From Rhodospirillales bacterium (lineage in GTDB: Bacteria > Pseudomonadota > Alphaproteobacteria > Rhodospirillales > UBA2165): 64,000 nucleotides of DNA. The notes beneath the pieces were generated by a model. That model had not been told where the DNA came from and made no database searches. It worked only from the letters and a program-made list of their open reading frames with translations. Below, one piece after another: positions 2,236-64,000 of this stretch. The first letter of the stretch is position 1, and every line of letters starts with the position of its first letter. Both the position numbers and the translations under genes were made by a program. The DNA is taken from the NCBI GenBank assembly GCA_022823235.1, contig JAJDXO010000057.1:23963-87962 (forward strand), in the 5' to 3' direction.

Positions 2236-2739
2236 ATGTCCAATTGGTACGCCATCTTCACCCACGCCCGTGCCGAGCAAAAGGCGCTGTTCAATCTCGA
2301 GCGGCAGGGGTTTCAGTCGTTCTTTCCCAAATACCGCAAACGGCGGCGCCACGCCCGACGCGTCGAAACGGTCTCGGCTCCGCTTTTTCCGCGTTACGTT
2401 TTCGTTTGGCTGGATATCGACCGGCAGCCGTGGCGGTCGATCAATTCGACCTTGGGCGTTCACGGAATTGTTTGCCAGGGCGAGAAGCCCGCGCCGTTGC
2501 CGGAGGGAATTGTAGAGGAACTGATCTCCCGCCAGGACGAATCGGGCTGTGTCGGCCTAGGCGGCAACATGTCGATCGCCCGGGGGCGGCCCGTGGAGAT
2601 CACCGACGGTCCATTTGCCGACTGCGTCGCCATCGTCGACCGTTTGCTGGACGCGGACAGGCTGGTCGTACTGCTCGATCTCCTGGGGCGTCGGGTCAAG
2701 GTACAGGTTCAAGCCCGCGCGGTTATCGCCGCGGTTTGA
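2236..2739 (+). CDS. rfaH: RfaH/NusG-paralog transcription antitermination factor
   Basis: ATG at 2236 (MSNWYAIFT...); NGN-domain motifs NLERQGF, PLFPRYVF, WRSINSTLGV; C-terminal KOW (VEITDGPFAD...VLLDLLGR). The 1570 start in the ORF track is an upstream extension. Confidence 0.85.
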   Translation: MSNWYAIFTHARAEQKALFNLERQGFQSFFPKYRKRRRHARRVETVSAPLFPRYVFVWLDIDRQPWRSINSTLGVHGIVCQGEKPAPLPEGIVEELISRQDESGCVGLGGNMSIARGRPVEITDGPFADCVAIVDRLLDADRLVVLLDLLGRRVKVQVQARAVIAAV

Positions 2740-2754
2740 ACGTCACGCATCGGG

Positions 2755-2795
2755 CGCACTCCGGGTGAGCTTTTCACCCGGAGTGCGGTAGCGTG
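2755..2795 (+). promoter_or_regulatory. JUMPstart-like element: 14-bp perfect hairpin overlapping an ops pause site
   Basis: CGCACTCCGGGTGA (2755-2768) / TCACCCGGAGTGCG (2774-2787); GCGGTAGCGTG at 2785-2795 matches the ops consensus GGCGGTAGnnTG except for the first base; lies between rfaH and the first glycan gene. Confidence 0.8.
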
Positions 2796-2815
2796 GAAAA
2801 ATTCCCAGGCCAAAA

Positions 2816-3493
2816 ATGGATGCGGCGGTGAGTCAAAATCCCGATGTTTCGGTGATCATTCCGGTTCACAACCAGGAACGCTATGTACACCGATGTCTTC
2901 GTTCAATCCTCGACCAATCCCTCGACGCGGACGACTACGAGATTCTCGTCGTCGACGATGGAAGTACCGATCGAACCGCCCAGGCGCTTCAGATGTTCGA
3001 GGGGGACATCCGATTGATCCGACACCCGGAATGCCTGGGCCTGCCGGCGGCGCTAAATGCCGGAATACGGCATGCGCGCGGTCAGTTTGTCGTCCGGCTG
3101 GACGGCGACGACTACGTCCATCGGGAATATCTGAACGCGCTGATGCTGCATCTGCGGTTGAACCCCGGGATGGACGCCATCGCCTGCGACTACCTGACGG
3201 TGGATGACCACGAAAACGTACTCGGACACATTAACTGGCTGGATCGACCTATTGGATGCAGCATCATGTTCCGCTACGAACAGCTAATCGATATCGGCCT
3301 ATACGATGAAGATTTTCTGGCGCGGGAGGATGAAGACCTGAGGCTGAGGTTCATGGAGAAATACTCTATCGATCGGGTTGCCCTGCCGCTCTATCGTTAC
3401 CGCCGCCATGGTGGAAACATGACCAATGACGATGAGCAAATGGAAGCCTATTCCGAAGCACTGCTGAGGAAACACGGACGGGAGTCCCCATGA
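2816..3493 (+). CDS. Glycosyltransferase family 2
   Basis: VSVIIPVHN, VVDDGSTD, ALNAGI, RLDGDD, EDEDL motifs. Confidence 0.9.
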   Translation: MDAAVSQNPDVSVIIPVHNQERYVHRCLRSILDQSLDADDYEILVVDDGSTDRTAQALQMFEGDIRLIRHPECLGLPAALNAGIRHARGQFVVRLDGDDYVHREYLNALMLHLRLNPGMDAIACDYLTVDDHENVLGHINWLDRPIGCSIMFRYEQLIDIGLYDEDFLAREDEDLRLRFMEKYSIDRVALPLYRYRRHGGNMTNDDEQMEAYSEALLRKHGRESP

Positions 3494-4686
3494 CCATGGA
3501 CAAACCTTGGGCGGTGAAGTGGAGCGGCCGCGGTTCGCAATATACCGAGGAAGAAATCGACTATATCGTCGAAGCCATTCGCACGGCTGATCCGCTTACC
3601 CAAGGTCGGTATCTCGCCGACTTCGAGGAAAAATTCAAAGAATTTACCGGCGCAAGCCACGCTTTTGCGGTCGCCAACTGCACCTGCGCTCTGGAGCTCG
3701 CTGCAATTCTCTGCCGATTGACCTCGGACGATGAGGTTATTGTTCCGGCGCACACATTCGCGGCGACCGCGATACCCTTTGCACGGACCGGCGCAAAGAT
3801 TGTTTGGGCCGACATCGACCCGCGCACCCTGGTGGTCGATGCGGACGCAATTCAAAAATGCCTGAGCGCGCGAACCCGGGCGATCGTCGTCGTCCACCTT
3901 TACGGACTGGTCTGCGACATGGACCCCATTTTATCACTTGCCCGAGAACACGGCATACCTGTGATTGAGGATGCGGCGCAGGCGCTGGGGGCCACTTACA
4001 AGGGCACCCAGGCGGGAACAATGGGCGATTTCGGGTGCTATAGCTTTCAGACCCATAAGAACGTTTCAACGCTTGGCGAGGGCGGGGTTTTGTCGGTGCG
4101 GAGCCCCGATCTGGCGGCACTGGTGCCGGGCCTGCGCCACAACGGGATGCGCGCATACGAAGGTGACCGCCCGAACTACTGGCTTCCGGCGATGGGTGAT
4201 GTCGATTTCGACTGGGATGGCGTGTGGCCCTACAACTTCTGCATCGGCGAACCTCAGTGCGCCGCCGGCGTTCTTATGCTCGACCGGGTCGACGAGGTGA
4301 ATGCCCATCGCCGCGAAAAGGCGGAGAGATTTGAACGGGATCTCGGCGAGTATCCCGAACTGGTATTTCAAGCGACTCCACAGTACGGCGAATCGGCACG
4401 CTACTGTCTGCCCGCACGATATGACGGCACGAATACGAAAGGCAGCCGCAACGATTTCATGGACCGAATGGCCCACCATCACCGCGTAAACATGGTGGTT
4501 CAGTACCACCCGCTCTACCGCTATCCCATGTTTGAAAAGGCGGGTTTCGGTGACGCCGACTGCCCGCATACGGACTTTTTCTTCGACAATATGGTCTCGT
4601 TTCCATTCCACGAATGGATGCCCGCGAACGAGTACGAGTATCTCGTTTCCGCGGCCCAGGAAACCTGTGAGCACCTGCGTCGCTGA
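3490..4686 (+). CDS. DegT/DnrJ/EryC1/StrS PLP-dependent sugar aminotransferase
   Basis: DEVIVPAHTF, VVHLYG, EDAAQALGA, YSFQTHKNVSTLGEGG (catalytic Lys). Confidence 0.9.
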   Translation: MTMDKPWAVKWSGRGSQYTEEEIDYIVEAIRTADPLTQGRYLADFEEKFKEFTGASHAFAVANCTCALELAAILCRLTSDDEVIVPAHTFAATAIPFARTGAKIVWADIDPRTLVVDADAIQKCLSARTRAIVVVHLYGLVCDMDPILSLAREHGIPVIEDAAQALGATYKGTQAGTMGDFGCYSFQTHKNVSTLGEGGVLSVRSPDLAALVPGLRHNGMRAYEGDRPNYWLPAMGDVDFDWDGVWPYNFCIGEPQCAAGVLMLDRVDEVNAHRREKAERFERDLGEYPELVFQATPQYGESARYCLPARYDGTNTKGSRNDFMDRMAHHHRVNMVVQYHPLYRYPMFEKAGFGDADCPHTDFFFDNMVSFPFHEWMPANEYEYLVSAAQETCEHLRR

Positions 4687-5765
4687 TGGCAATCACCAAA
4701 ACAGTCGGTGAGTACGTTTTCGGCTCCGGGTCGTTTGAGCAACTTGCCGACCTGCTGCGGCCCCGCCGGGAAATCGAGGGCGCGCCGGTCGTGTTTCTTC
4801 TGGACCATTTCTTCGCCGGCAGCGGTCTGATGTCGCGACTTCCGGCCGAGGATGACGACCAGATACTCATGGTCGACACGACCGATGAACCGACAACCGA
4901 TTCGGTTGATGGTTTCACGTTACGGGTGCGGGAGACATGCGACCGTGAACCCGCGGCTGTCGTCGCCATCGGCGGCGGGTCTACCTTGGATACCGGAAAG
5001 GCGGTATCGAATCTACTTACAAATCCCGGCCAAGCCGCGGATTACCAAGGCTGGGACCTACTCCGGCATCGCGGCGTTTTCAAGATCGGCGTCCCGACTA
5101 TTTCGGGAACAGGCGCCGAGGCGTCCCGCACCTGCGTCATGCTCAATGCGGAAAAGAACATCAAGCTGGGGATGATCAGCGAGTTTTCGATCTTCGACCA
5201 GTTGCTGCTCGACCCCGACCTGACGTCAACGGTCCCGCGGGAGCAATTCTTTCATACCGCCATGGACACCTATATCCACTGCGTCGAGTCGCTGGGCGGA
5301 CGCTTTCGGCATCCGGTCGCAGACTCCTTTTCAAAGGAGGCGCTGCGGCTATGCCGAGAGAGCCTGTTGGAAGACGACATGCAATCGCCGGGCAGCCGCG
5401 AGAAATTAATGGTGGCCTCCTATCTCGGCGGGTCGGCGATCGGCAACAGTTTCGTCGGCGTTGTGCATCCGGTGTCTGCGGGCTTGAGCATGGTCTTCCA
5501 TACCCACCATTGCATAGGCAACTGTATCGCTCTCAACGGGCTTGACGAGTTTTACCCCGAAGAGGCCGCCGAGTTTCGTCGAATGCGGGACGTCCAGAAC
5601 ATCCCGCCGCCGCCCAAGGTTTGTACCGGCGTGACGGAAGACCAATTGGTCCAGCTATATGATGCGACTATCGTTCACGCCAAGCCGCTCGCCAATGCGC
5701 TTGGAGACCGATTTGCCGACATTTTGAATTTCGACAAGGCAGCCTCAATTTTTCGTCAGTTATGA
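4686..5765 (+). CDS. kdnB: Iron-type alcohol dehydrogenase, KdnB-like (Kdo 8-oxidase family)
   Basis: GGGSTLDTGKAVS, LTNPG..ADYQGWDL, PTISGTGAEASRT, MDTYIHCVESL, HHCIGNCIA..EFYPE: closely resembles KdnB as I recall it. Confidence 0.75.
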   Translation: MAITKTVGEYVFGSGSFEQLADLLRPRREIEGAPVVFLLDHFFAGSGLMSRLPAEDDDQILMVDTTDEPTTDSVDGFTLRVRETCDREPAAVVAIGGGSTLDTGKAVSNLLTNPGQAADYQGWDLLRHRGVFKIGVPTISGTGAEASRTCVMLNAEKNIKLGMISEFSIFDQLLLDPDLTSTVPREQFFHTAMDTYIHCVESLGGRFRHPVADSFSKEALRLCRESLLEDDMQSPGSREKLMVASYLGGSAIGNSFVGVVHPVSAGLSMVFHTHHCIGNCIALNGLDEFYPEEAAEFRRMRDVQNIPPPPKVCTGVTEDQLVQLYDATIVHAKPLANALGDRFADILNFDKAASIFRQL

Positions 5766-59706: not shown

Positions 59707-60387
59707 ATGATCGATAAGCAATGCAAGAGTGCGGCGGAAGCCGTCGAGGGGATCGGGGACGGCGCCGTCATCCTGGTCGGCGGCTTCGGCCAGACGGGCG
59801 AGCCCATGGACCTCCTCGACGCCATCGCCGCCAGGGGTCTCAAGGACCTCACCATCGTCGCCAATGGCGGCGGGTCCGGCGAGCATGGCATCGGCAGGCT
59901 GCTGGCCGGCGGCTGCGTGCGGAAACTGGTGTGCTCGTTTCCACGGGTGCCGGGCTCCGTCGCCTTCGAGGAACTCTACGAGCAGCGGGCGATCGAGCTG
60001 GAGATCGTCCCCCAGGGCACCATCGCCGAACGGGTCCGGGCGGGCGGCGCGGGCATTCCCGCCTTCTACGTGCCGACCGGCGCCGGCACCGAACTCGCCG
60101 ACGGCAAGGAGCATCGCGAGTTTGAGGGCCGGACGTTCGTCATGGAACACGCGATCAAGGGCGACGTGGCGGTGATCAAGGCCGACCGCGCCGACCGCTG
60201 GGGAAATTTGACCTACAGGCTGTCAGCGCGGAATTTCAATCCGGTCATGGCCATGGGCGCCGGGCTGACCATCGCGCAGGTGGAGAAGTGCGTCCCCCTG
60301 GGCGAGATGGACCCGGAAACCATCGTCACGCCCAGCATCTTCGTCGACCGGGTGGTGGAAATTCCGGGCGGGGTGTCCAATGGCTGA
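59707..60387 (+). CDS. pcaI: 3-oxoacid CoA-transferase subunit A
   Basis: LVGGFG, CSFPR, PQGTIAER.RAGGAGIPAFY, DRWGNL, RNFNP. Confidence 0.85.
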   Translation: MIDKQCKSAAEAVEGIGDGAVILVGGFGQTGEPMDLLDAIAARGLKDLTIVANGGGSGEHGIGRLLAGGCVRKLVCSFPRVPGSVAFEELYEQRAIELEIVPQGTIAERVRAGGAGIPAFYVPTGAGTELADGKEHREFEGRTFVMEHAIKGDVAVIKADRADRWGNLTYRLSARNFNPVMAMGAGLTIAQVEKCVPLGEMDPETIVTPSIFVDRVVEIPGGVSNG

Positions 60388-61066
60388 CGGTTTGACGCGC
60401 AACCAGATGGCCTGGCGCCTCGGCCGGGATATCGCCGAGGGGTCGTACGTGAATTTGGGCGTCGGCATCCCGCTGCTGGTGCTCGATCATGCGCCGGGGG
60501 GCCGCGAGATCATCTTCCATTCGGAAAACGGCGTGCTCGGCATGAAGCCCAAGGACGAGACCGACGGCATATTGCCGGACGACCTCACCAATGCGGGCAA
60601 GCAGCCCGTATCGCTGGTGCCCGGTGCCGCCATGTTTCATCACGCCGACAGCTTCATCATGATCCGCGGCGGGCATGTGGATATCGCGGTTCTCGGCGCC
60701 TATCAGGTGGCCGAGAACGGCGACCTTGCCAACTGGCGGCTCCCCGGCTCCCCCACCGCGCCCGCCGTCGGCGGCGCGATGGACCTCGCCGCCGGGGCCA
60801 GGAACGTCTGGGCCATATGCGAGCACACCGGCAGGGACGGCGCGCCCAAGATCGTCCGCGAGTGCACGCTCCCCCTCACCGGGCCCGGGTCGGTGAACCG
60901 CATCTACACCGACCTCGCCATCATCGACGTCACCCCGGACGGCCTCGTGGTGCGGGAGAAAATCGAAACGCTGTCCCTGGAAGACCTACAGGCCCTGAGC
61001 GGCGCCCCGCTGACCCTGGCCAACGGCTGGCGGCCCCTGGAGGCGCCGGATTTGACGCCACACTAA
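60380..61066 (+). CDS. pcaJ: 3-oxoacid CoA-transferase subunit B
   Basis: VNLGVGIP, SENG (catalytic Glu), IRGGH, VGGAMDL, CTLPLTG. Confidence 0.85.
   Translation: MADGLTRNQMAWRLGRDIAEGSYVNLGVGIPLLVLDHAPGGREIIFHSENGVLGMKPKDETDGILPDDLTNAGKQPVSLVPGAAMFHHADSFIMIRGGHVDIAVLGAYQVAENGDLANWRLPGSPTAPAVGGAMDLAAGARNVWAICEHTGRDGAPKIVRECTLPLTGPGSVNRIYTDLAIIDVTPDGLVVREKIETLSLEDLQALSGAPLTLANGWRPLEAPDLTPH
61018..61047 (+). repeat. 30-bp perfect direct repeat, copy 1 (pcaJ 3' end)
   Basis: GGCCAACGGCTGGCGGCCCCTGGAGGCGCC, identical to 61673-61702. Confidence 0.95.
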
Positions 61067-61067
61067 G

Positions 61068-61535
61068 TCACTTCATCTTGCGGTAACCGGGAATCGCCGA
61101 AATTCCACCTTCGACGTTGACGTTTGTCCGGGCGCCGATGTTGAGGAACTGGCAGTTCAAAAATTCCTCCTCGGTTTCAAATAGTAGGTAACCATTGGGA
61201 TCGAATAAGGCACCCGGAAATCTCTTGAGATTGTTGTACCAGCATCCATCTCGATGGAAGAGTGACTGTCGCGCTCCGGCTCCCCACTCATCATTCAATT
61301 GAACACCAGAGTACATTCGGGTCCGCCGGTTGGAAATCGACCTTCCGTACCCGATTCTTGTGGTTTGGAGATGGGGGTTGATGGATGTCTCTTTCGATGT
61401 AGTTAATGGTGCCGTGACAACTTCATCCAAACCCAGTTCTCTCCGCAGAACAGAATTTGGAGAGTCTTCAAATGGTCGGGCCAATTTCTGAAGCTGAGAA
61501 TACACTTCATCATCAATTTCAATGTTATGCGTCAT
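61068..61535 (-). CDS. AT-rich hypothetical protein: SeqA-N/RHH-like N-terminus plus an unnamed C-terminal domain
   Basis: MTHNIEIDDEVYSQLQKLARPFEDSPNSVLRRELGL; C-terminal G.WY..L.RFPGALFDPNGY; visibly lower GC than the flanks. Confidence 0.75.
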   Translation of the reverse strand: MTHNIEIDDEVYSQLQKLARPFEDSPNSVLRRELGLDEVVTAPLTTSKETSINPHLQTTRIGYGRSISNRRTRMYSGVQLNDEWGAGARQSLFHRDGCWYNNLKRFPGALFDPNGYLLFETEEEFLNCQFLNIGARTNVNVEGGISAIPGYRKMK

Positions 61536-61558
61536 TGGAGCACCCCTACTACCGCCTC

Positions 61559-61639
61559 AGTAATTTACTACAGGCCTACGGGAACTTCAAGTAAATTACT
61601 ATATGGTCTAGTAAACGCCTTTCATAGAAGTAATTTACT
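61559..61639. promoter_or_regulatory. Three AGTAAWTTACT palindromic boxes
   Basis: Copies at 61559-61569, 61590-61600 and 61629-61639, directly upstream of the 61535 ATG. Confidence 0.7.
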
Positions 61640-61672
61640 GAAAACTCATAGGACATTTGAGATCACACGACC

Positions 61673-61702
61673 GGCCAACGGCTGGCGGCCCCTGGAGGCG
61701 CC
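61673..61702 (+). repeat. 30-bp perfect direct repeat, copy 2
   Basis: Identical to 61018-61047; continues ...GAC CTG TGA (ANGWRPLEAPDL*). Confidence 0.95.
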
Positions 61703-62005
61703 CGACCTGTGATGATCGACGCCAACGGGGAAATTTTCATCTGGATACCCCGGACCTGCGCCGGGTCGGTCAATTCGTCCGAATTGACCTTACATGACGG
61801 AATAGGGGGCTCCAACAACACCCGTCATGCCCCGCCCCACCGGACCGGCCTTCAGTCGGCCGAAGCCGACTTTCGGACGGCGTAGGCCGGCTTCGCCGAC
61901 CGGAGGACAAGCTCCGTGCGGGACATCACCGCAGGCCAAATGATCTCGGTTTTTCTCGACAATCGGTATGCTAGCATTGTGGTTACAAAACAGCGGCCTG
62001 ACGCG

Positions 62006-63616
62006 GTGTCTGATTACGATTACATCATTGTCGGGGCTGGTTCGGCGGGCTGCGTCCTCGCAAACCGGCTAAGCGAAGACCCCAAGACTCGTGTCCTGCT
62101 GCTGGAGGCGGGCGGCCCCGATCGTCATCCGCTCATTCCGGCGCCGCTGGCAATGCGGTTCGTCTCGCGCAATCCGAACCTGCTCTGGAATATCCGCACC
62201 GAACCCGAACCCTATTGCGACAACCGGGTGTTCGAGCCGCCCCGGGGCCGGGTGCTCGGCGGCACATCTTCGGTGAATGCGATGATCTATGCTCGCGGTC
62301 ATCCCGGCGATTATGACCAATGGCGTCAGTCGGGACTCGTGGGCTGGGGCTACGAAGACGTCCTGCCCTACTTCAAGAAATCCGAATGCCACTGGCAGGG
62401 TAGGAGCGAGTTTCACGGCGGTGATGGACCCCTTCGCGTGTCCCGGACCGGCGTGACCAATCCAATGCATGATCTGCTCAGCCGCTCGGCGGCGGCGGCG
62501 GGCGTTCCGCTGACCGAGGATTTTAATGGTGCCGAGCCCGAGGGGATTATGGTGCCGGATATGACGATCGCCGGCGGCAAGCGGTCTTCGACCGCGCGGA
62601 TGTTCCTTCGCCCGGCCTTACGGCGCAGGAATCTGACAATCGAAACCTGGGCGCGGGCGCACGGAGTGCTCATCGAGAACGGGCGAGCCGTCGGCGTCCG
62701 CTATGGGCGGAATGGCAGGATCGTGGATGTGGAGGCCGCCCGGGAAGTCGTGTTGGCCGGCGGTACATATATGTCGCCGCAGCTTCTGATGTTGTCGGGC
62801 ATCGGTCCCGCGGCGGAGCTGGACAAACATGGAATCGCTTGTGTTGCCGACCGGCCGGCCGTTGGGCAGGGCTTACAGGAACATGCCAATGCTTTCTTGG
62901 ATTTCCGGCTGTCCCGGCCCTTGTCCATGAACCGGCACTTACGCCTCGACCGGTTGGCCGGTTCCGTCGTTAGATGGCTGGCAAACGGCACCGGCCAGGT
63001 CGGTAACTTCCCGACCTCTTCGGTGGGTTTCCTTCGGGTTCATCCCGAGAGCGAGCGACCGGATGTAGAGATCATCGCCGTACCCATCTGGCAGGATGCC
63101 GATCCATGGTTTCCGGGCATCAAACGACCGGCGCCGGAACGCTACTCCATGCGGGTTTCACAAATGCATCCGAGAAGCCGGGGCAATGTGGGACTGCACT
63201 CCGCGGACCCTGAGGCACCGCCCAAGATCCAATGGAACCTGCTGCAGGACGAGTACGATCTCGTGACTTTGCGTGAAGGCCTGAAACTGGTGCGGCGCAT
63301 GTTCGCCGAGGAGCCGCTCCGAGGGGCGGTCGAGACCGAAGACAGCCCCGGCCGAGAAATATCCTCCGACGGCGAGATCGATTCCTGGCTGCGCGCCAAC
63401 TGCACGACGGCACAACATCCTGCGGGCACCTGCCGCATGGGCGCCGATAAGGATGCGGTCGTGGATAGCCGGCTTCGGGTGCGGGGGATCAGAGGGCTTC
63501 GAGTTGCCGATTGCTCCATCATGCCCTGGCTGGTGGGTGGAAACACCAACGCGCCGACCATCATGATTGCCGAGAAAGCGGTTGATCTATTGAGGCAAGG
63601 CGCCGATAGCGCCTAA
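62006..63616 (+). CDS. GMC oxidoreductase (choline dehydrogenase-like)
   Basis: [57 protein letters not shown]. Confidence 0.93.
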
Positions 63617-63723: not shown

Positions 63724-64000
63724 TTGGCCAAAACCACCTTCGGAATCTTCGACCATATTGAAGGCATCCCGGGAACGTCCACGCAGCAATTGTTACTTGA
63801 CCGGCTGAATATCATAAAGAAGGCCGATGCGGCCGGCTTTGCGGGCCTTTACTTCGCCGAGCACCACGGAACCGATCTCTGTCTGGTCCCCAACCAGGAT
63901 TTGATCATCGCGGCCGCCTCGCAGGTCACCACCGCTATTCGAATGGGGCCAATGGTCAAACTGCTGCCCCTGCACAATCCAGTCCGGGTCATTGAGGATC
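63724..64000 (+). CDS. LLM-class flavin-dependent oxidoreductase, 5' part (runs off the window)
   Basis: Manual translation from TTG: MAKTTFGIFDH...AGF..LYFAEHH...AAASQVTTAIRMG...LPLHNPVRVIED; GGAG RBS upstream. Confidence 0.8.
   Translation, partial: MAKTTFGIFDHIEGIPGTSTQQLLLDRLNIIKKADAAGFAGLYFAEHHGTDLCLVPNQDLIIAAASQVTTAIRMGPMVKLLPLHNPVRVIED

Follow-up and report, generated by a model that had tools for sequence, protein, structure and literature searches.

Autorepressors of the Arc/MetJ/CopG class combine an N-terminal strand-helix-helix (ribbon-helix-helix, RHH) module with palindromic or repeated sites at their own promoter and with a specificity that is linked to the β-strand, and NikR represents an example in which such a module is joined to a sensor. 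RHH proteins are described as obligate dimers that place a β-sheet in the major groove and employ Arg or Lys residues as primary contacts (PMC10853773). Here, we report on a gene encoding a 155-amino-acid (aa) protein with an RHH-like N-terminus, located in a 64,000-nt stretch of the genome of a Rhodospirillales bacterium (GCA_022823235.1, contig JAJDXO010000057.1, positions 23,963 to 87,962 of the forward strand); this whole stretch is referred to as the window, and all coordinates are those of the window. In what we consider the best reading of the locus, with a probability of roughly 0.6, the gene specifies a mobile, autorepressed and nuclease-free protein in which an RHH module is combined with a reader-type domain.

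The window protein shares with RHH autorepressors a putative N-terminal strand-helix-helix, the palindromes at its own promoter and an apparent link between β-strand and site sequence, but its C-terminal partner is a restriction-nuclease-associated domain rather than a metabolite sensor, its strand presents Asn, Glu and Asp instead of Arg or Lys, and it has no recognisable further regulatory target, as its genome holds no other sites. It also resembles SeqA, both in the sequence and, tentatively, the predicted fold of the first ~35 residues and in its overall layout, in which a flexible linker connects a small N-domain to a DNA-reader-type domain. Unlike SeqA, it scores below the cut-off for SeqA_N, is devoid of SeqA_C and belongs to a family whose evidence favours sequence-specific reading by the N-domain; moreover, SeqA is a core replication factor, whereas the window gene resides on a mobile single-gene cassette. 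Type IV restriction enzymes join a reader to an HNH, GmrSD or PD-(D/E)xK nuclease, examples being the SBD-HNH phosphorothioate-dependent enzymes and the wH- and RAMA-nuclease fusions, the latter noted there as possible modification sensors (PMC11037411). By clear homology, the window protein contains a domain that takes the reader position in enzymes of this type, as do the Mrr_N and RAMA domains of its sister proteins, but it lacks a nuclease and instead carries the RHH module at the other end of the chain.

With regard to mobility, att-flanked integrative islets without an integrase of their own represent cis-mobilisable elements. The unit described here is similar to these in its direct repeats, one of which is the 3′ end of the target gene, in the precise empty site of related strains and in having no recombinase aboard; it differs in comprising only 655 bp and one gene, in its protein-coding rather than tRNA target end, and in that no helper recombinase was found. 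Integron cassettes with their own promoter have been reported from sedentary chromosomal integrons, where they comprise toxin-antitoxin (TA) cassettes and some that serve in defence (bioRxiv 10.1101/2024.07.02.601686). Relatives of the window gene include bona fide ~600-bp cassettes with an internal promoter, whereas the window copy has no attC, is flanked by a duplicated piece of its target gene and resides in a genome without an integron integrase above the cut-off. RHH autorepressors, integron cassettes with their own promoters and reader-nuclease fusions are already known. Our literature search retrieved no description of a single RHH module coupled to several nuclease-free restriction-type readers (the search with RAMA, Mrr_N and SeqA_N as terms being swamped by unrelated words), of the FPGALFD domain described below ('FPGALFD' occurring in no paper found) or of a 655-bp repeat-flanked single-gene insert.

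A strain-polymorphic insert in a CoA-transferase gene

The gene lies on a segment whose GC content drops to 0.36-0.55 between about 61050 and 61700, compared with 0.62-0.78 in the flanks, and which is bordered by two copies of a 33-nt direct repeat that differ at one position (97 % identity) and lie 655 nt apart from start to start. The repeat sequence corresponds to the 3′ end of a CoA-transferase subunit gene (Table 1), and its left copy leads into insert DNA, thereby giving this gene the new end …PDLTPH*. The CoA-transferase genes of the same genus end in …APEL*, and in three loci read in the right orientation (L006-L008) the end of the gene reads …GCGCCGGAGCT(G/A)TGA. In all six same-genus genomes, the CoA-transferase match (93-97 % identity) stops at position 61050, where the left repeat ends, and the insert sequence found no match in any of these six genomes.

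Contigs from four sponge-metagenome runs were likewise compared with the window. Two runs, X1 (possibly the source run) and X2, hold the insert. A 991-nt contig of run X3 joins 61017 to 61673, thus skipping exactly 655 nt, with 30 nt of ambiguity that correspond to the repeat and with 16 differences over 516 nt of flank, and the insert is likewise bridged by a contig of run X5, which stems from a separate study. The insert is thus polymorphic between strains, and related strains possess a precise empty site; as in att-flanked elements, direct repeats flank the insert, one of which is the target's own sequence. Given that the same-genus matches stop at the repeat and that the X3 and X5 contigs bridge the insert, the unit represents a recent insertion or deletion, via recombination between, or creating, the repeats.

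The first-pass annotation of this region, which had been made from the sequence alone, described the gene and its palindromes as a self-contained module. This description was borne out, as they constitute the sole content of the 655-bp insert and the palindromic motif occurs nowhere else in the genome; the low-GC, repeat-flanked and mobile nature of the unit was absent from that annotation.

Palindromes at the promoter and the sequence of the β-strand

Three 11-bp palindromes of the form AGTAAWTTACT precede the gene, with starts at 61559, 61590 and 61629 (31 and 39 nt from start to start), and are accompanied by an AGTAA half-site at 61610-61614, all of which had been located correctly in the first-pass annotation. 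The open reading frame (ORF) starts 23 nt downstream of the nearest palindrome, and the palindromes lie 34-114 nt from the right repeat, without a counterpart at the left end of the insert. When up to one mismatch was allowed, the motif was found three times in the window, compared with 0.05 matches expected, and none of 100 shuffled sequences reached this number. Across the 3,775,704-base assembly, these three places were the only ones, and a reversed control pattern gave none. With only three copies in the assembly, the motif is not the genome-wide site of another regulator, a possibility that had been raised at the outset. A palindromic or repeated operator at the protein's own promoter, as expected of an RHH regulator, is thus represented in the window by three palindromes over a promoter-like site.

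Comparable arrangements were observed among relatives. At 18 full-length genome loci, the typical upstream region consists of TTGACA-17 nt-TAnnnT, followed or overlapped by TGTAACA/TGTTACA palindromes and then by a ribosome-binding site. A scan of metagenome contigs with the N-terminal alignment returned 227 relatives, 80 of which were kept. With an Arg-type strand defined as x-x-I-R-[IV]-D, at least two TGT[ATC]AC half-sites were present in the 70 nt before the start at 49 of 81 distinct Arg-type loci, as opposed to 2 of 445 control windows. Of 20 genes that encode the C-terminal domain without an RHH module, none is preceded by a pair of these sites, and one (L051) has a single heptamer 74 nt upstream. 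The expectation that homologues would carry the palindromes was therefore confirmed for the position at the promoter and not for the sequence, as AGTAAWTTACT itself is not carried by homologues.

The strand H-x-I-E-[IV]-D of the window protein also occurs in L075, L098 and L136 and in two proteins encoded by Rhodococcus plasmids (L155 and L156). Upstream of these HxIE-type genes, AAGTA[AC]/[GT]TACTT words were present at least once in six of six cases and at least twice in five of six, while two or more such words were observed at only 1 of 86 other loci. The six proteins carry three unrelated C-terminal domains, i.e. the FPGALFD domain, an unnamed L075-type domain and RAMA (L155 and L156). 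As HxIE-type proteins with three unrelated C-terminal domains share AAGTAA words, the site sequence appears to follow the β-strand rather than the C-terminal domain. A co-variation was thus shown, albeit post hoc, in which Arg-type strands appear to pair with TGTAACA sites and HxIE-type strands with AAGTAA sites; L155 and L156 were fetched after this idea had been formed, and both fit the pattern. Such strand-linked site sequences would match the DNA-reading mode of RHH proteins as described in the source cited above (PMC10853773), and the palindromes are most likely RHH operators, as judged from these sequence comparisons.

Pairs of AGTAAWTTACT were also encountered in 10 viral loci; no relative is encoded there (hmmsearch, six frames), and the pairs are attributed to chance or to something unrelated. 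In viral contigs L053 and L057 (GC 0.41-0.44), which encode no relative, a pair lies within the same 52-nt span, and these pairs are possibly operators of an unrelated repressor.

Table 1. Positions of the features of the insert and its surroundings in the window
Feature	Position	Strand	Basis or remark
CoA-transferase subunit gene, insertion target	60380..61066	+	ORF; Pfam CoA_trans, 108.7 bits; last codons (…PDLTPH*) from the insert
Left copy of 33-nt direct repeat, inside CoA-transferase gene	61018..61050	.	Repeat family of 2 copies, 97 % identical, 655 nt apart
Low-GC insert, 622 bp	61051..61672	.	GC profile; missing in congeners and in related strains of two further runs
155-aa gene with RHH module and conserved C-terminal domain, joined by disordered linker	61068..61535	-	ORF, alignment, AlphaFold model
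Residues 70-155, unnamed ~85-aa domain with FPGALFD motif	61071..61328	-	Common to HNH, GmrSD and NOV_C nucleases
Residues 41-65, variable linker, predicted disordered	61341..61415	-	pLDDT <50; length-variable in alignment of relatives
Residues 1-36, RHH/SeqA_N-like module, β-strand HNIEID	61428..61535	-	Profile and structure comparison
Palindrome 1, nearest to gene, AGTAATTTACT, in leader	61559..61569	.	Motif scans
Palindrome 2, AGTAAATTACT, overlapping predicted -10	61590..61600	.	Motif and promoter scans
σ70-like promoter match: ATGAAA, 16-nt spacer, TATAGT	61598..61625	-	Consensus match only
AGTAA half-site in -35/-10 spacer	61610..61614	.	Read from sequence
Palindrome 3, farthest from gene, AGTAATTTACT, abutting predicted -35	61629..61639	.	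Motif and promoter scans
Right copy of 33-nt direct repeat	61673..61705	.	Runs on into original gene end (…CGACCTGTGA) and native downstream DNA

Architecture of the protein

The 155-aa protein, which starts with MTHNIEIDDEVY..., has about 100 relatives of similar length, the best of which is 53 % identical and most of which are encoded on short metagenome contigs. The AlphaFold model (predicted local distance difference test, pLDDT, 82) comprises an N-terminal two-helix module, a disordered segment at residues 41-65 and a C-terminal domain with pLDDT >95. In the N-terminal module, helices at residues 9-18 and 26-33 follow an extended N-terminus, which could form a strand only in a dimer.

A resemblance of the N-terminus to SeqA-N, as noted in the first-pass annotation, is real and stays below threshold. 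Pfam SeqA_N (PF17206) gave 13.2 bits against a gathering cut-off of 23 (E 0.055), with relatives reaching at most 21.6 bits, and SeqA-N of PDB entry 1xrx matched with E 0.17 (phmmer) and E 0.034 (profile). Foldseek aligned 1xrx with a probability of 0.96 (TMt 0.70, root mean square deviation, rmsd, 1.8 Å, 32 columns, 38 % identity) but with E 0.56, and the VIA structure comparison gave Z 2.8 (rmsd 2.7 Å, 35 residues aligned); RHH antitoxins, NikR and MatP were obtained as weak structural matches of the module (Z 2.0-2.5). The NCBIfam SeqA equivalog matched residues 4-51 only (E 0.13), and SeqA_C, the domain that binds hemimethylated GATC, had no Pfam match in the protein at E ≤10. Within the strand, the window protein has Glu where 17 of 18 aligned sequences have Arg. 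The associated proposal of SeqA-like oligomerisation was not supported: the match is below the SeqA_N cut-off and the operator sequence co-varies with the β-strand and not with the C-terminal domain, which points to an ordinary DNA-reading RHH module.

The NCBIfam model 'T4SS effector SepA family' matches the RHH module (residues 3-35) with its positions 1-45 of 182, as it does five of six RHH-bearing relatives scanned, in each case far below the cut-off; proteins of the SepA family may share this N-terminal module.

No model in Pfam or NCBIfam covers the C-terminal domain, for which relatives in 619 clusters were found at E ≤1e-3 in a library clustered at 50 % identity. In 24 of 148 scanned representatives the domain is followed by a C-terminal HNH or HNH_2, and NOV_C (two), GmrSD_C (one), T5orf172 (one), Mrr_N (one), a GreA/GreB C-terminal piece (two) and a HicB-like domain (one) were also observed, in addition to GmrSD_N and HSDR_N (one each) below threshold; many of these representatives are stand-alone proteins of 85-120 aa. 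The HNH fusions, which the first-pass annotation had mentioned, were thereby verified and were found also at loci L033, L034, L039, L043, L047, L049 and L051, while other genome loci encode fusions to DUF262-like (L042), NOV_C-like (L046) and GNAT (L040) domains. Five of eight stand-alone copies adjoin restriction or defence genes, namely a gene for a TIR protein together with DUF2357/PDDEXK_7, DUF2357/PDDEXK_7 alone, a gene for an Mrr enzyme, a fragment of a DNA methylase and, immediately upstream of the copy, an HNH gene. Furthermore, the HNH_2 half of two fusions resembles the nuclease half of a phosphorothioate-DNA restriction enzyme model, which places the C-terminal domain in the reader position of that enzyme.

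Consistent with the earlier statement that no nuclease domain is present, none was detected in the 155-aa protein in Pfam, NCBIfam or PADLOC, the last of which gave no match at all, and PHROGs returned only a match with E 0.21. In an alignment of 70 sequences, the conserved positions of the C-terminal domain are D112 (99 %), G97, P107, G115, Y151 and hydrophobic positions; a conserved (D/E)xK was not found, with positions 120-124 being variable and no Lys conserved. Structural comparison with VIA listed PD-(D/E)xK nucleases in 10 of 19 rows (I-Ssp6803I, Z 3.9; NhoI, 3.6; Eco15I-N, 3.3; then MepB, PvuII and others), all with Z below 4. Because it is mostly the N-terminal partner of nucleases and shows no conserved catalytic set, the domain was treated as a non-catalytic reader. 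It most likely serves in DNA targeting, possibly of modified DNA, as suggested by the context of its fusions. As for the regulatory or defence-associated role proposed in the first-pass annotation, a restriction/defence flavour finds support only in domain context; the overall interpretation given there was partly supported.

The wider RHH family and its vehicles

To compare partners of the RHH module, 74 distinct metagenome proteins of at least 100 aa were grouped by their C-terminal part. The largest groups contain the FPGALFD domain (31 proteins, 18 of which have the literal motif, as counted by reading) and Mrr_N (28 proteins; all five tested match Pfam Mrr_N, four of them above the cut-off), and the remainder is made up of two unnamed clusters of eight and three proteins and four singletons, including a RAMA protein (68.7 bits). 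RAMA is the partner in L125, L155 and L156. These groupings suggest a recurring design in which one autoregulatory RHH module would be combined with a restriction-type reader and without a nuclease. L155 and L156 are proteins of 140-143 aa annotated as hypothetical; the gene of one lies beside an IS3 transposase gene and a DUF499 gene, and that of the other near a DUF3644 gene.

The vehicles of these genes are varied. L016 represents a chromosomal integron with twelve 73-nt attC-like GCCTAAC…GTTAGGC repeats and a tyrosine integrase, in which the relative forms a ~600-bp cassette, and attC-like ends were recognised by eye at L083, L085, L096, L102, L103, L111 and L120. Complementarity of cassette ends was observed at 8 of 89 eligible loci and in none of the mismatched controls. 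A strict attC detector missed even the known sites of L016, and in its relaxed form it placed adjacent sites at 3 of 96 loci, compared with 0-3 in shuffles. Exact flanking repeats of at least 16 nt surround relatives only at L016, L019 and L089, so that the kind of flank seen in the window is rare among the fetched loci. At L019, the relative sits between 57-nt repeats that resemble a tRNA 3′ end and lie 1125 nt apart, and the relative at L031 adjoins tRNA-Met. Across the 18 genome loci, no neighbour is conserved, and housekeeping, TA and restriction genes occur.

In 201 genomes of the order, the two-domain match was obtained only in the genome of the window and in none of its five congeners, while five others match with the RHH part only. 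Among 72,556 plasmid records, no full-length and five partial matches were found; 50,697 phage records gave no match and viral contigs one weak partial match.

Several loci have features of their own. L019 contains, at 2484-4970, three direct copies of the 57-nt tRNA-3′-end-like sequence at distances of 1305 and 1125 nt; a complete tRNA is missing from the 8.4-kb locus, whose appearance is that of small units integrated in tandem. In a Rhodospirillales metagenome-assembled genome (MAG; L027:3800-4900), a relative and a 148-aa ORF of unknown function form a low-GC islet of ~1 kb (25-44 % versus 55-67 %) directly downstream of gyrB, with a RecF/SMC-type gene about 1.3 kb further on. In a Lysobacteraceae MAG, the relative is closely preceded by several families of short tandem and dispersed repeats (46-54 nt and 24 nt; L024:3238-3917).

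Assessment of the proposed explanation

According to the preferred reading, the RHH module would dimerise and read the AGTAAWTTACT palindromes that cover its own σ70-like promoter, and occupancy of these sites, with palindrome 3 abutting the -35 element, the half-site in the spacer, palindrome 2 over the -10/start region and palindrome 1 in the leader, would result in negative autoregulation. The disordered linker would tether this module to the reader-type C-terminal domain, which may bind DNA and might have a role in defence. The unit, spanning 61018-61705, would be a recently acquired single-gene mobile cassette that entered at the 3′ end of the CoA-transferase gene by recombination via ~30 nt of identity (Campbell-type, site-specific or homologous), an event that would leave behind the 33-nt direct repeat and a rebuilt gene end.

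Various observations weigh against this reading. The promoter is a weak match in the consensus scan (one found, with 0.6 expected by chance), and the DNA-facing residues of the strand (Asn, Glu and Asp) are unusual for RHH proteins and SeqA-like, such that the N-terminal module may have a purely oligomerising role. In the family, a clear TGT[ATC]AC pair is missing at 32 of the 81 Arg-type loci. The word patterns behind the strand/operator co-variation were chosen post hoc with the data already seen, three of the six HxIE-type proteins are close kin, and palindrome geometry differs among their loci (AAGTACTT versus AGTAA-W-TTACT). For the C-terminal domain, fusion context is the sole basis of its designation as a reader: fold searches with the whole model and with a domain-only model (pLDDT 92.5) yielded a best Z of 3.9 and no Foldseek match at E ≤1e-3, and a known fold may have been missed by these searches. 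No second gene with this domain exists in the genome, in which the gene itself is the only match to the family alignment, nor does the genome hold a second target site, so that the benefit to the cell is unexplained. As regards mobility, the 155-aa ORF is the sole gene on the insert and no integrase is encoded by the element; the best score for an integron integrase in this 98.8 %-complete assembly is 76.3 bits (TIGR02249) against a cut-off of 265; neither an attC-like site nor cassette-end complementarity was found in the window; and single-strand folding of the junctions compared with shuffles (z 0.10, 0.29, -1.65 and -1.87) revealed no attC-like hairpin. For lack of a recombinase, an integron integrase above the cut-off and an attC-like site or hairpin at the junctions, we can only infer the mechanism of insertion, for which the simplest fit is that a circular form entered by a Campbell-type event at ~30 nt of identity.

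The SeqA-like character of the strand raises the alternative that the N-terminus only oligomerises and that the C-terminal domain binds the three spaced palindromes in a multi-site nucleoprotein complex, as an analogue of SeqA. Alignment to SeqA-N by sequence, profile and Foldseek on 1xrx, the strand IEIDDE with Glu replacing Arg, a plan of N-domain, flexible linker and reader-type domain, and sites spaced 31 and 39 bp are all in keeping with such an analogue. We nevertheless regard it as improbable, given that SeqA_N remains below its cut-off and a SeqA_C-like domain was not found, that operator type tracks the N-terminal strand irrespective of which of at least three unrelated C-terminal domains is attached, and that the palindrome pair is absent (0/20) where the C-terminal domain occurs without the RHH module. 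The foremost alternative, if an unlikely one, is a single-chain addiction module, in which an antitoxin-type RHH would repress its own gene and the C-terminal domain would inhibit growth when freed or over-made, thereby stabilising integron arrays and islets. The N-terminal RHH and disordered segment are laid out as in antitoxins, the gene has its own promoter and operator like the integron TA cassettes described in the preprint (bioRxiv 10.1101/2024.07.02.601686), TA genes are often neighbours (HigB/helix-turn-helix in L015, AbiEii in L018, CopG in L026), the C-terminal domain also occurs fused to a HicB-like antitoxin and to DUF497/BrnT, and the gene at L016 runs opposite to the only Pfam-supported ORF in a neighbouring cassette. 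However, this domain has no conserved catalytic set, its conserved polar or aromatic residues being limited to D112, Y116 and Y151, it is mostly a non-catalytic nuclease partner, and the DNA-binding domains Mrr_N and RAMA, with which the same RHH module also pairs, are not known to be toxins. An adjacent cognate toxin gene, which defines type II TA systems, is lacking, as the gene is alone in the insert and has no conserved neighbour at the 18 loci.

The remaining alternatives concern the benefit to, or the movement of, the carrier DNA. A nuclease-free reader could act as an anti-restriction shield or decoy by occupying the marks of reader-HNH enzymes, and a domain known from nuclease fusions is indeed present without a nuclease and carried on mobile cassettes; this is very unlikely, as no reader-nuclease with the C-terminal domain is encoded in the genome, none lies next to relatives at the 18 genome loci, and plasmid and phage records contain hardly any members of the family. 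That the palindromes are recombination or end sites of the element, bound by a recombinase of the host or a helper and not operators, would be in line with their position near one end of an insert that has no recombinase of its own. This is highly improbable, considering that in relatives the palindromes lie between the -35 element and the ribosome-binding site irrespective of whether the gene resides in an integron cassette, a tRNA-flanked unit or a plain islet, that the motif varies with the strand of the protein, and that the other end of the insert has no matching site. Least probable of all is a free-standing homing endonuclease, for which the C-terminal domain would have to be a minimal PD-(D/E)xK nuclease, with cleavage of the empty CoA-transferase site and spread through repair. 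PD-(D/E)xK enzymes, among them the homing enzyme I-Ssp6803I (Z 3.9, rmsd 3.6 Å, 68 residues aligned), head the structural list, and the gene sits by itself in a conserved gene whose reading frame is kept intact; yet all Z values are below 4, a range which the structure-search tool designates as a common arrangement, the alignment shows no conserved (D/E)xK, the domain usually accompanies a separate nuclease in the same chain, and relatives occupy many unrelated sites. Moreover, homing is not known to produce a 33-nt direct repeat.

With a mobile, autorepressed RHH-reader protein thus preferred, a broader and doubtful proposal may be advanced: such proteins, with the type IV reader domains FPGALFD, Mrr_N and RAMA, could form an undescribed class, carried in integron or repeat-flanked single-gene cassettes and acting on their own to sense or silence invading DNA that is modified, or to shield against restriction, with target DNA titrating the repressor so that expression would amplify itself. 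If the interpretation is correct, the FPGALFD domain, widespread and without a model, would mark a family of likely modification-dependent nucleases, and the ligand of the domain can now be sought. The repeated joining of restriction-type readers to one autoregulatory RHH module without a nuclease would suggest sensing, silencing or shielding. The two strand types with their sites (Arg-type/TGTAACA and HxIE-type/AAGTAA) would provide a natural example of RHH specificity switching that is testable by residue swaps. The polymorphic 655-bp insert, with a 33-nt target duplication and no recombinase, represents a compact case of single-gene movement outside integrons.

Further observations at the insertion site

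A search with Rfam over 60900-61950 gave nothing at E ≤1. Inspection by eye showed that ATTTGAcgcCACAC, from the left end of the insert, and ATTTGAgatCACAC, from close to its right end, agree at 11 of 14 positions in direct orientation, which may be due to chance. Just downstream of the CoA-transferase gene, positions 61740-61900 contain multi-copy REP-like GC-rich inverted repeats, with many short matches of 90-100 % identity across congener genomes and a contig depth of 180-640 compared with about 6-15 in the flanks. The GMC oxidoreductase gene at 61916-63616 is situated here only in this genome, and 98 % identical copies in congeners G001, G002 and G004 reside on different contigs or at a great distance. 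The order in G001 is CoA-transferase gene, repeat and then the ORF that starts at window position 63724, and the CoA-transferase locus looks like a rearrangement hotspot.

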